A stretch of 64,000 bases of DNA from contig CP011216.1 of the NCBI GenBank assembly GCA_001029795.1, forward strand, positions 350,767 to 414,766, given 5' to 3'. Each line of letters opens with the position of its first letter. The stretch's first letter is position 1. Shown here one piece after another: positions 29,480 to 31,929 of the stretch. Origin of the DNA: a candidate division Kazan bacterium GW2011_GWA1_50_15 (lineage in GTDB: Bacteria; Patescibacteriota; Kazan-3B-28). The position numbers and the translations under genes are program-made. The notes under the pieces were generated by a model. It did no database searches and was not told the origin of the DNA. It was given only the letters and a program-made list of their open reading frames with translations.

Positions 29480-29541
29480 CCCGCCAATTTAAAGTTCGTA
29501 CTCGTGTGCTGCTACGCGAATACCAGCTCTAAATTGGCGGG
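29480..29541 (-). mobile_element. TIR-bounded IVS-like insertion A in 23S (domain IV helix tip)
   Basis: 62 nt bounded by CCCGCCAATTTAAAG ... CTCTAAATTGGCGGG. It replaces the GCGCAAGC loop between GGGGTTA and GAAGCTC. Confidence 0.6.
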
Positions 29542-30067
29542 ATAACCCCTCTACGTGACCTTCTGGCACCGGGCAAGCGTCAGCCCCTATACCTCCTCTT
29601 TCGAGTTAGCAGAGACCTGTGTTTTTGCTAAACAGTCGCCTGATGTCTTTAGCTGCGGCCCCCCACTTTCTACGCACCAACTTGCGTTGCTTAGCGCATG
29701 AGCGCTATGCGCAGAAAGTGGGGGGCAGTCCTTATTCCGAAGTTACGGACGCTATTTTGCCGAGTTCCTTAAAGAGGGTTCTCTCGTGCGCCTTAGGCTA
29801 CTCGCCCTATCCACCTGTGTCGGTTTAGGTACGGATGCTCAATGTTCTCGCTAGAGGTTTTTCTGGTCAACTTAGATCAGCCAAATCGCCTTGTCCCGAA
29901 AGACTCAACTTTCCATTACAACTCGCGGTTCTCCGATTGCTCGGACGTTCCCCGGATTTGCCAAAGGAACCCACTTGTTGCTTAGACTGAGAAACCTATC
30001 TCAGCTCGGCCTACCAACTTGCGTCACCCCATTGCTAGACGTGCAGACCAGCAGAACCAGCATCCAT

Positions 30068-30169
30068 CCCGCCAATTTAACGCTTGTACCTATGGTTATC
30101 TCTCGACCAATTACATATAAACGTAAAACGATTAAGAAACTACCAAGATACCAGCCCTAAATTGGCGGG
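30068..30169 (-). mobile_element. TIR-bounded IVS-like insertion B in 23S (domain III variable helix)
   Basis: 102 nt bounded by CCCGCCAATTTAA ... CCCTAAATTGGCGGG. Confidence 0.6.
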
Positions 30170-31066
30170 ACGATCATCTGGCCTACCAGTTTGCTTGTCT
30201 TGGGCGAACATTAAGCAGTACAGGAATATTAACCTGTTGTCCATCGCCTACGCCTTGCGGCCTCGGCTTAGGACCGACTAACCCTGGGTCGAAAACCGTC
30301 GCCCAGGAAACCTCGGATAAATCGGCGTTAGAGTTTTTCACTCTAATCTCGCTACTCGTGCCAACATTCTCACTTCTGCGCGCTCCATCCAACCTCGCGG
30401 TTAAACTTCACTGCTGCGCAGAACGCTCCCCTACCGCTCTGCCTTACGGCAGAGCCCGCATCTTCGGTATTCAGCTTAGCCCCGTTAAATTTTCGGCGCA
30501 GACACACATCGACCAGTGAGCTGTTACGCTTTCTTTGAAGGATGGCTGCTTCTAAGCCAACCTCCTGGTTGTTCATGTGTCTCCACTTCCTTTCACACTT
30601 AGCTGAATTTAGGGACCTTAGATGGCGGTCTGGGCTGTTTCCCTTTCGACATACGACGCTTAGCCGCCGTTTTCTGACTCCCGGGCTTAACCGGACAGTA
30701 TTCGGAGTTTAATTGGACGCGGTACGGTAAACCGCCCGAATCCATTCAGTAGCTCTACCACTGCCGGGAACGCTCTGAGGCTATACCTAAATATATTTCG
30801 GGGAGAACCAGCTATCTCCGGGTTCGATTGGAATTTCTCCGCTAACCACAGTTCATCCCCCCACTTTTCAACGTAGGTGGGTGCGGCCCTCCACTGCTTT
30901 TTACGGCAGCTTCAGCCTGACCATGGTTAGGTCACCCGGTTTCGGGTCTAATCCCTGCTACTTCAATCGCGCTATTCGCACTTGCTTTCGCTTCGGCTGC
31001 GAACGATAAGTTCTTAGCCTTGCAACAGAAATTAACTCGTTGGCTCATTCTACAAAAGGCACGCCG

Positions 31067-31330
31067 TCACCCCGCCATTTTAAAGCTCGTATCTAAACGC
31101 TGTTTCAACCTAGTCCAAGTTGTTCCATAATTTTTCAGCAGTTTTTCTCGTTTGTAAGCCGCGTGGGGGTCACGATAGGCTTCATAATATACGAGGTTAA
31201 AACTGCCATGCCCTTGATGGGCTGAAAACCTCTGGCGCAGGCTTTTGGTCTGGCCAATGTATGGTTTATGGGTTTTTAGATTGAGTAAGACATAGACATA
31301 GTGCATGTCTACATCATATAGCGTCGACAC
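31067..31330 (-). CDS. minimal GIY-YIG nuclease (87 aa) encoded inside 23S insertion C
   Basis: YVYVLLNLKTHKPYIGQTKSLRQRFSAHQ is GIY-(10 aa)-YIG with the conserved Arg and His; a downstream YYEAY Glu is present. The C-terminal FKMAG* is encoded by the TIR itself, and the gene has the same orientation as the rRNA. Confidence 0.65.
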   Translation of the reverse strand: MSTLYDVDMHYVYVLLNLKTHKPYIGQTKSLRQRFSAHQGHGSFNLVYYEAYRDPHAAYKREKLLKNYGTTWTRLKQRLDTSFKMAG

Positions 31331-31349
31331 CAGCGCTAAAATGGCGGGG
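31071..31349 (-). mobile_element. TIR-bounded insertion C in 23S helix 25, carrying a GIY-YIG ORF (putative autonomous copy)
   Basis: 279 nt bounded by CCCGCCATTTTAAAGCTCGTAT ... GCGCTAAAATGGCGGG (an A/T compensatory pair keeps the ends complementary). It replaces the helix-25 hairpin, which is the classic IVS site. Confidence 0.6.
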
Positions 31350-31829
31350 CTCCGACTTTTAGATGGGCATTCGGTTTCAGGTACTATTTCACTCCCCTCG
31401 CCGGGGGACTTTTCACCTTTCCCTCACGGTACTTGTTCACTATCGGTGAGAAGTGATATTTAGCCTTACCAGATGGTCCTGGCACATTCCGGCGGGATTT
31501 CACGGGTCCCACCGTACTTAAGAAATAACGCTCAGAGTGATCTTCTTTTCGCTTACGGGACTATCACCCTCTTTGGTTGCCCTTTCCAGGGACCTTTAGC
31601 TAAGAAAATCATTTGTAACTCCTCATTTGGTCTACCGCCCAAAATGCATTATCCTTGTAACCCCCTCCTGCGCAACGCCAGTAGGCTTTAACACGCAAGA
31701 GAGTTTAGACTTCTCCCTTTTCGCTCGCCACTACTTAGGGAATAACATTTGTTCTATTTTCCTCGTGCTACTAAGATGTTTCAGTTCGCACGGTTTCCTC
31801 CACATCGCCTATGTATTCAGCAATGGGTT

Positions 31830-31929
31830 CCCGCCAATTTAAAGCTCGTATATCGCTACTGCCCACCCGACTAATTAACGAATTATTTATCGGTTGGGAT
31901 ATTTGATATACCAGCCCTAAATTGGCGGG
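31830..31929 (-). mobile_element. TIR-bounded IVS-like insertion D in 23S (helix 9 tip)
   Basis: 100 nt bounded by CCCGCCAATTTAAAGCTCGTAT ... ATACCAGCCCTAAATTGGCGGG. It replaces the hairpin between GATTTCCGAATGG and GAACTGAAACATCT. Confidence 0.6.

Follow-up and report, generated by a model that had tools for sequence, protein, structure and literature searches.

Hairpin inserts share their termini within a Kazan 23S rRNA gene

The 23S rRNA gene described here lies on the minus strand (27675..32060) of a 64,000-nucleotide stretch of the genome of the candidate division Kazan bacterium GW2011_GWA1_50_15 (contig CP011216.1, positions 350,767 to 414,766), which we refer to as the window, and spans ~4386 nt with all of its insertions. 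Four of these insertions, all in the orientation of the rRNA (minus strand), share their termini and are designated here as elements A-D of family 1. Element D (31830-31929, 100 nt) replaces helix 9 (H9), and element C (31071-31348, 278 nt, or 280 nt with one further C-G pair) takes the place of the helix 25 (H25) tip ACGC-UUAG-GCGU and contains an open reading frame (ORF) for a GIY-YIG protein. Element B (30068-30169, 102 nt) caps an extra helix of domain III at about E. coli position (Ec) 1410, and element A (29480-29541, 62 nt) replaces the GCAA tip of helix 68 (H68) in domain IV. These placements derive from alignment to the Rfam model and to the E. coli 23S rRNA, the numbering being that of the 2,899-nt K-12 rrl copy (L001), which toward the 3' end can run a few nucleotides below the canonical one. 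A preliminary description, which read the plus strand, i.e. the reverse complement of the 23S RNA, had reported four segments at these places and assigned them to H9, H25, a variable helix of domain III and a domain IV tip. All four were found and the helix assignments hold on the alignment to E. coli, as do the reported lengths of 62, 102 and 100 nt, whereas copy C, given as 279 nt, measures 278 nt.

In the RNA sense, the termini of the elements read 5'-CCCGCCAAUUUAGRGCUGGURU...AUACGARCUUUAAAUUGGCGGG-3', and an inverted repeat search recovers all four terminus pairs. The 12-mer CCCGCCAATTTA, with at most one mismatch, occurs in the window solely at the eight termini of A-D; with two mismatches it has 15 matches against 6.45 expected, a number reached in 0 of 100 shuffles. 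The consensus given earlier for the ends stands overall, with a slight departure in copy B (AACGCTTGTA). The termini of element C carry an A-U to U-A swap (CCATTTTA/TAAAATGG) that results in an AUUUU/AAAAU variant of the stem, which is the compensatory change at both ends of copy C noted in the preliminary description. Each of the elements A-D folds into a single long hairpin, the z-scores ranging from -7.4 to -10.2 (-56.5 kcal/mol and z -7.4 for element D), and no match to Intron_gpI or to group II introns overlaps any of them in Rfam scans.

The family extends to 16S rRNA and RNase P RNA

When the RNA-sense 5' arm was used as an exact pattern, 185,579 species genomes yielded 15 loci, compared with ~17 expected by chance according to our own estimate. 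Six of the 15 loci have a matching 3' arm and comprise seven elements, all within rRNA genes: 23S H9 in a Kazan metagenome-assembled genome (MAG; L014), a minimal 46-nt copy at H9 together with a 275-nt copy at H25 on a 560-kb chromosome (L017), helix 98 (H98) in two Kazan MAGs (L021, L024), H68 (L012) and a 16S hairpin (L022). The other nine loci, which have neither a second arm nor an RNA gene, were rejected as chance matches, as was L013, where coding-like sequence gave a partial match at the edge of a chunk. With the 3' arm as the pattern, a search of metagenome contigs returned 11 loci, nine of them with complete elements (13 elements, some loci being duplicates), and added two hosts, namely helix 63 (H63) of 23S rRNA (L032/L036) and RNase P RNA; the remaining L027 and L035 are coding-like sequence with no second arm and no RNA gene, and were likewise taken as chance matches. 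In both scans, every two-arm match resides in a 23S, 16S or RNase P RNA gene, and the matches outside RNA genes are without a second arm. All validated copies are hosted by Kazan-type bacteria of the Candidate Phyla Radiation (CPR) and are always in the sense orientation, and viral contigs gave no match to either arm. The single-arm patterns recover ~70% of the known copies, and the absence of copies elsewhere in these genomes is therefore unproven.

Thus, the search for the termini in this and related CPR genomes that the preliminary description had proposed adds H63, H98, 16S rRNA and RNase P RNA to the sites of the family, which within 23S rRNA now include H9, H25, the extra helix of domain III, H63, H68 and H98. 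Further 23S copies are located at H25 with an ORF (L017), at H68 (L028) and at H98 (L021, L024, L028 and L042). The 16S copy occupies the hairpin directly 5' of a conserved AAAG, the E. coli version of which is CGUC-GCAA-GACC (Ec 184-193). We take this hairpin to be helix 9 of the 16S rRNA. The RNase P RNA gene (rnpB) of L030 is 605 nt long, compared with 367 for the model, and contains two family-1 copies, one of which replaces the P12 tip while the other lies between the 3' strands of P2 and P4, at the position of the optional helix P19. In L031 rnpB, a family-1 copy is located at P12; at the P19 position of the same gene (2455-2600) there is a ~150-nt insertion with long stems of its own that is unrelated to family 1.

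Selection acts on the stem at the RNA level

Across 19 copies, the basal stem comprises 23 pairs, of which 12 are nearly invariant, with a fixed 1x1 mismatch at position 18 (19/19 copies), a G.U at pair 13 in 17 of the 19 copies, and an A-U or G.U (R-U) at pair 21. The bases that flank the copies also pair (U..A or C..G), lengthening the helix. The elements fall into length classes of 46 nt (empty), 61-62 nt (short hairpin), 96-102 nt (a ~50-nt hairpin with shared motifs) and 267-278 nt (the 79-aa gene). The ~100-nt copies of 23S, 16S and RNase P RNA can be aligned over their full length and have interior motifs in common, which identifies them as homologous elements rather than sequences with no more than similar stems.

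In the alignment of the stems, 94.7% of cells are paired, compared with 30-48% when the partner strand is slid. Covariation analysis across the homologous copies, as envisaged in the preliminary description, reveals seven pairs changed on both sides, with a score that is reached by 0 of 500 shuffles. Moreover, G.U or U.G cells outnumber A.C or C.A cells by 52 to 11, an excess that would arise only under selection for pairing in the host-strand transcript. Together with the uniform sense orientation, the compensatory changes and the G.U excess establish that the stem and its orientation are under selection at the RNA level, in agreement with what had been deduced from copy C. A covariance model (R1) built from twelve copies scores the host sense 15-30 bits above the antisense for every copy, and in the window assigns 87.3 bits to element D (62.9 antisense), 73.8 to B and 58.9 to A. 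R1 recovers all short copies, not the ORF-bearing copies of 267-278 nt, and a search with it identified no new diverged members.

Helix tips are gained and lost among close relatives

The occupancy of the 23S sites was compared in an E-INS-i alignment of five related genes (the window, L008, L014, L036 and L037) with E. coli. At H9, the window and L014 have orthologous family-1 copies and L036 has a different insert with terminal inverted repeats (TIRs), whereas L008 (ACUCUAG-CAAAC-CUAGAGU) and L037 are empty. At H25, family 1 is present with the ORF in the window and L008 and as a diverged, ORF-less version of 209 nt in L014, while L036 and L037 are empty. The domain III tip bears family 1 in the window and a short hairpin in the other four genes (UCUGCC-GCAA-GGCAGG in L037, CCUGCC-GAAA-GGUAGG in L014 and CCCGA-CUUG-UCGGG in L008). 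H63 has an insert of a second type ('family 2', see below) in the window, a family-1 copy in L036, an unrelated insert in L014 that makes it ~120 nt longer than in L037, a short form in L008 and none in L037. H68 is occupied by family 1 in the window, in L008 (98 nt, with an unrelated interior) and in L037 (62 nt), is empty in L014 (CC-GCAA-GG) and in E. coli, and has a 24-nt extension in L036. At H98, L036 alone has a family-1 copy, the window, L008, L014 and L037 being empty.

The core 23S sequences of these genes are 83-92% identical overall, with 92% between the window and L014 and 84-88% between the window and the others. Even the window and L014 differ in occupancy at H25, H45, domain III, H63 and H68, and occupancy therefore turns over fast compared with the divergence of the rRNA. 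The flanks of a filled and an empty allele can be identical, as seen at H98, where the empty site of the window, CCAUC|CCCC-GCAA-GGGG|GGAGA, corresponds to CCAUC|CCCGCC...GGCGGG|GGAGA in L024. On a shorter scale, the GIY-YIG protein is identical on 15 groundwater metagenome contigs and the elements spanned by those contigs are unchanged; in the syntenic sister genome (L008/L009/L029) the protein is 73% identical.

The copies are also related across sites, and they group by genome or sample and not by site. Both L008 copies have the termini CCAGCC...GGCUGG, where the other copies have CCCGCC...GGCGGG (bar one mismatch in L022), and the same compensatory double change in two copies calls for either exchange between them or co-evolution with a common factor. 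In L030 rnpB, the P19 copy has its closest relative at H68 of L028, which stems from the same metagenome (77%), and the P12 copy at H98 of L028 (67%). The 16S copy is most similar to the L028 copy at H68 (68%), whereas the two P12 copies (L030 and L031) are just 59% alike. Gain and loss at these tips are thus rapid, and copies at different sites are related to one another.

Three further observations concern these tips. In the 209-nt version at H25 (~Ec 545) of L014, the stem has drifted by compensatory changes from AUUUU/AAAAU to GCACA/UGUGC. The same gene has a 140-nt insert with unrelated termini at the classical intervening sequence (IVS) site of helix 45 (~Ec 1171). L037, the least-invaded 23S, has identical GCC-GCAA-GGC caps at positions 640, 696, 1562 and 1701, which could reflect a habit of the lineage, preferred targets or healed excision sites.

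A small GIY-YIG nuclease is the conserved partner of TIR-bracketed units

Copy C had been predicted to bear an ORF, and this ORF, on the rRNA strand, encodes a GIY-YIG domain protein of 79 aa from its ATG (31067..31306, minus strand); gene callers start it at a GTG at 31330, giving 87 aa. The 3' terminal repeat of element C supplies the last eight codons (DTSFKMAG), and translation ends at a UGA just beyond the element. A Pfam scan matches PF01541 only (38.6 bits, cut-off 22.6), with the domain covering nearly the whole protein, and the catalytic motifs YVYVL, YIG, LRRR and YYE are kept across homologues. TIGR01453 of NCBIfam ('group I intron endonuclease') gives a weak match (21.6 bits, cut-off 56), and no sequence match was found among solved structures.

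The family-1 proteins at H25 (window, L008 and L017) and at H98 (L042) are 66-77% identical. The ratio of nonsynonymous to synonymous differences per site (pN/pS) among the four is 0.18-0.30, with a saturated pS of 0.67-0.97, and the changes fall mostly at third codon positions. These patterns indicate that the gene is under purifying selection and, therefore, functional. The H98 protein is as near to the H25 proteins as these are to one another, and hence the ORF-bearing unit has moved between sites. Its reading frame opens 32-43 nt into the element and continues through the 3' arm, the sequence of which encodes DTSFK(M/L)AG.

All nine distinct homologue loci, i.e. every homologue for which DNA was fetched, are units of 264-294 nt between inverted repeats. 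In the other homologue units, the long inverted repeat is composed of a C-rich clamp followed by an A/U-rich run, and the units at 23S H25 of L038, L044, L045 and L046 have the termini CCCAGCACUUUCUG... The 23S gene of L046 contains two different TIR-bracketed GIY-YIG units, at 1908-2190 and 2473-2754 (~Ec 275 and H25). Units are found in intergenic DNA as well: those of L039 (3486-3775), L047 (1159-1452) and L048 (1629-1922) lie at a conserved position within a type IV pilus gene cluster, with start and stop codons inside the inverted repeats, and that of L041 is also intergenic, a permissive Rfam search for an unrecognised RNA gene having returned nothing at this locus. The nuclease is a conserved partner of family 1 and belongs to a wider class of TIR-bracketed units.

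A proposed model: selfish hairpin elements of the IVS type

Taken together, we think it fairly probable that family 1 comprises selfish hairpin elements of the IVS type, with an autonomous, nuclease-bearing form, miniature relatives and probable removal by RNase III. The patchy occupancy, the filled and empty alleles and the relatedness of copies across sites lead us to infer that the elements are mobile. One sequence family that spreads over helix tips of several stable RNAs, with one form bearing a small nuclease gene, is to date the clearest evidence at the sequence level for the mobility of rRNA intervening sequences. The proposal of the preliminary description, that the inserts represent one probably mobile family and not independent expansion segments, is borne out by the wider set of hosts, the patchy occupancy and the grouping by genome or sample.

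In the proposed mechanism, the nuclease-bearing form would be the autonomous selfish unit and the short forms its non-autonomous relatives, with copies being gained, lost and copied between helix tips of the 23S, 16S and RNase P RNA genes. The likeliest route would be a nuclease-induced DNA break that is repaired from another copy, where the clamp CCCGCC/GGCGGG may provide microhomology to the GC-clamped tetraloop hairpins of empty sites, and exchange between copies would keep the termini uniform within each genome. Copies would survive in the sense orientation only, and only where they lengthen a solvent-exposed helix as an independent unit. RNase III would most likely cut the stem of ~20 bp, as in classical IVSs, such that the insert is removed and the pieces of the now fragmented host RNA are held together by the remaining structure. 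No RNase III signature was found in the window, a 64-kb sample that is uninformative in this respect.

We also entertain a broader proposal, which we consider plausible and advance tentatively, namely that units of ~265-295 bp consisting of a hairpin-forming inverted repeat, an 80-aa GIY-YIG nuclease and an inverted repeat form a class of minimal mobile elements that had gone unrecognised, and that one of its lineages, together with ORF-less miniatures, might have specialised in colonising helix tips throughout the major stable RNAs (23S, 16S and RNase P RNA). Were this the case, the 30-year-old question of IVS mobility would be answered, and the RNase P RNA and 16S rRNA of these bacteria would be fragmented or contain excisable inserts. 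Fragmented RNase P RNA is a prediction of this proposal and would be new.

Several observations weigh against mobile elements of this kind. The flanks of the 19 copies contain no target-site duplications or direct repeats, and as no two copies are nearly identical in their interior, nothing points to very recent transposition. The preliminary description had regarded A, B and D as derivatives of copy C, akin to miniature inverted-repeat transposable elements (MITEs); the shared termini and the occurrence of the ORF-bearing form at both H25 and H98 agree with this, but the interiors are not demonstrably related, and deletion derivatives of copy C were rejected as the origin of the short-copy interiors since no significant similarity was detected. 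The cross-RNA pairs involve L028 and L030, which share a metagenome, their origin from the same genome being unproven. The apparent preference for GCAA-tetraloop targets is no more than a suggestion: a crude enrichment is seen, but L037 has GCC-GCAA-GGC caps at many tips where no copy has been seen. The nuclease is a 79-aa GIY-YIG domain without a DNA-binding module, and it could serve only its own homing into existing hairpins. To our knowledge, GIY-YIG enzymes do not act as transposases. Lastly, the basal stem is as conserved in sequence as the rRNA core, even where 23S rRNA has no nuclease copy (L036 and L037), and a host factor could be what reads it.

Alternative explanations

The most serious competitor, which we nevertheless hold to be rather unlikely, is that only the nuclease gene is mobile, acting as a homing endonuclease that invades pre-existing IVS-type hairpins at their stem, with the short copies as its hosts. 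ORF-bearing and ORF-less alleles with the same stem at the same site would be expected from such invasion and are seen at H98 (L042 compared with L024, L036 and L028) and at H25 (the window compared with L014); the position of the ORF, always at the hairpin apex and reading into the 3' arm, and the weak NCBIfam match to a group I intron endonuclease point in the same direction, and conservation of the stem sequence would be explained by its being the recognition site. What such homing leaves unexplained is the arrival of ORF-less hairpins at about ten helix tips in three kinds of RNA, as well as the sister pairs across sites. Moreover, the intergenic GIY-YIG units are bounded by TIRs of their own, no host hairpin being evident around them, and the 79-aa protein is devoid of the DNA-binding domain of known GIY-YIG homing enzymes.

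Alternatively, the inserts could be expansion segments retained in the mature RNAs as functional modules, the stem being the binding site of a protein shared by the ribosome and RNase P, in the manner of archaeal L7Ae, which binds kink-turns (K-turns) in both rRNA and RNase P RNA. The stem is indeed conserved beyond the needs of pairing, with its near-invariant G.U and fixed mismatch, in genes whose core 23S sequence is merely 84-88% identical, and the uniform orientation and maintained interior hairpins would also be accounted for. We regard this as distinctly unlikely given the patchy presence of the copies among close relatives, by which no copy is essential, the cargo that ranges from none to a nuclease gene, the related TIR units in intergenic positions and the folds, in which no K-turn-like motif is seen. 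In addition, rRNA insertions of CPR bacteria are reported to be removed from transcripts, in a passage of PMC11270868 that cites Brown et al. 2015.

Concerted evolution without transposition, whereby independent helix extensions became alike through gene conversion of their GC-clamped stems and were then inherited vertically, is improbable in our assessment. It would fit the homogenised termini within a genome (CCAGCC in both L008 copies), the mostly unrelated interiors across the sites of the window and the native stems of empty sites, which are already clamp-like. Conversion of stems does not, however, predict ~100-nt copies that align whole, interior motifs included, across 23S, 16S and RNase P RNA, nor sister pairs that are 67-77% identical across different RNAs, a nuclease-bearing unit at two sites or filled and empty alleles with identical flanks. 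Finally, introns spliced by proteins, with the stem as the signal for an endonuclease and ligase (the logic of archaeal bulge-helix-bulge (BHB) introns) and the host RNAs religated, would recall the related sequences that archaeal intron families place at many positions of structured RNAs and would avoid the possible cost of a fragmented RNase P RNA or 16S rRNA, yet are highly improbable because the junctions contain no bulge-helix-bulge, the stems running unbroken from the first pair on, apart from a single 1x1 mismatch, and having no 3-nt bulges, and because we know of no bacterial precedent.

Relation to known elements

We know of no description of classical IVSs at different helices that share their termini, and we found no counter-example in the literature. 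Family 1 otherwise has much in common with the classical 23S IVSs of Salmonella, Yersinia, Campylobacter, Leptospira, Coxiella and Alphaproteobacteria, which are located at peripheral helix tips (H9, H25 and H45). Elements C and D reside at the classical H25 and H9 sites, and family-1 copies replace the terminal loop of a peripheral helix, have a stem of at least ~20 bp and are sporadic in occurrence, just as classical IVSs have complementary termini with a stem of ~20-28 bp, are sporadic among relatives and in some cases contain an ORF (PMC4990558; PMC11270868). The classical ORF is typically, though not obligatorily, an S23p/23S_rRNA_IVP four-helix-bundle protein (PF05635), whereas a GIY-YIG protein (PF01541) is found here; furthermore, a single family here spans seven sites of 23S rRNA, of which six are standard helices and one is the extra helix of domain III, as well as 16S rRNA and RNase P RNA. 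Classical IVSs are excised by RNase III without religation. The suspicion that they are remnants of mobile elements dates from 1990, but their mobility is still a hypothesis (PMC4990558). Because each known IVS occupies a single site and has no paralogues (PMC4990558), this idea has so far been untestable. What is new is a family whose many copies occupy non-homologous positions in three kinds of essential RNA, with filled and empty alleles in identical flanks and a conserved nuclease partner. How such elements spread, where they are tolerated and what signals their processing can thereby be tested directly. The conserved 23-bp stem is, in addition, a compact candidate for a processing or recognition module.

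Insertions are common in the same organisms: 82% of CPR 23S genes contain them (Tsurumaki et al. 2024, PMC11270868). That survey describes short non-intron insertions at IVS sites, GIY-YIG ORFs that occur in non-intron insertions only and 'sparsely at several sites', and LAGLIDADG group I introns in domain V, such as the one in the window (PMC11270868). It differs from the present analysis in that it took in only insertions of 100 bp or more, made no comparison between sites, does not mention inverted repeats and does not cover RNase P RNA (PMC11270868). For the latter, 'large extensions of helices' in CPR bacteria were reported without explanation and with no link to IVSs (Lui et al. 2021, PMC8172020). 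In the open-access literature we found no description of a family with shared termini across helices or RNAs, or of TIR-bracketed mini GIY-YIG units. The rRNA and RNase P RNA genes of CPR bacteria are of unusual length, which makes them harder to annotate and complicates 16S surveys, and family 1 accounts for some of this length.

Among DNA elements, MITEs and the REP (repetitive extragenic palindromic)/REPIN-RAYT system resemble family 1 in that short, palindromic, non-autonomous copies share their termini with an enzyme-encoding partner (PMC3116915), and the short and GIY-YIG copies here indeed have ~22-nt termini in common. In contrast to these elements, which are dispersed and mostly intergenic, family 1 has no target-site duplication and no intergenic copies (in the 64-kb window none lies outside RNA genes), its orientation is fixed to the host transcript, and its partner is a 79-aa GIY-YIG domain, not a DDE or Y1 transposase. 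Rickettsia palindromic elements are likewise tolerated within functional genes as long as the folded copy does not interfere. Homing endonuclease genes of group I introns (I-TevI-type GIY-YIG and LAGLIDADG) share with element C the position of a small nuclease gene at the apex of an RNA element in rRNA, and ORF-bearing and ORF-less alleles at one site, but there the host is no plain hairpin without a ribozyme core, the nuclease has a DNA-binding domain and the sites are not as many or as non-homologous as here. Archaeal BHB intron families, which transpose among tRNA and rRNA positions, similarly place related intervening sequences at different positions of several stable RNAs, whereas family 1 has bacterial hosts, no BHB motif at its junctions and no known splicing endonuclease.

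Other features of the locus

The insert in H63 of the window (29658-29726, minus strand, ~69 nt), which we term 'family 2', has the termini CCCCCCACUUUCUGCGCA...GUGCGUAGAAAGUGGGGGG in an inverted repeat of 19 nt with 95% complementarity. It has 10- and 11-mers in common with the H9 insert of L036, in which the H63 site is itself occupied by a family-1 copy, and its clamp followed by ACUUUCUG resembles the TIRs of the GIY-YIG units in L038, L044, L045 and L046. This insert suggests that several related hairpin families may exist.

Domain V of the 23S rRNA gene is interrupted by a group I intron of 781 nt (27968-28748, minus strand) that stands outside the hairpin family and contains an ORF (28049-28597, minus strand) for a single-motif LAGLIDADG_1 protein of 182 aa. 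Because of this intron, the Rfam LSU_rRNA_bacteria match (2265 bits, 28626-32060, minus strand) stops at 28626; beyond it, blastn aligns Ec 2600-2879 with window positions 27967-27691, and the 3' strand of helix 1 ends at ~27675. The intron is identified as group I through a homologous ORF-less insertion in the sister genome (L029), which scores 82 bits with Rfam Intron_gpI. Its junction is GAGACAGU|UCGGUC, which is presumably an I-CreI-like site at ~Ec 2593-2599, and L014 and L036 have an insertion at the same site.

Two additional expansions are common to all five Kazan-type 23S genes, one of ~80 nt at Ec ~275 (window ~31600-31700, minus strand) and an extra helix of ~85 nt at Ec ~1410 (window 30036-30206, minus strand); conserved in sequence, both look like ordinary lineage-specific expansion segments. 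The 5S rRNA gene was located by the Rfam scan at 27113-27229, and between it and the 23S gene there is an ORF for a membrane-protein-like product of 98 aa (27247-27543, minus strand), which is 101 aa in the sister L008. The 16S gene of this genome is not adjacent to the 23S gene, and unlinked rRNA genes with a protein gene in the spacer have been reported for CPR bacteria (PMC8172020).

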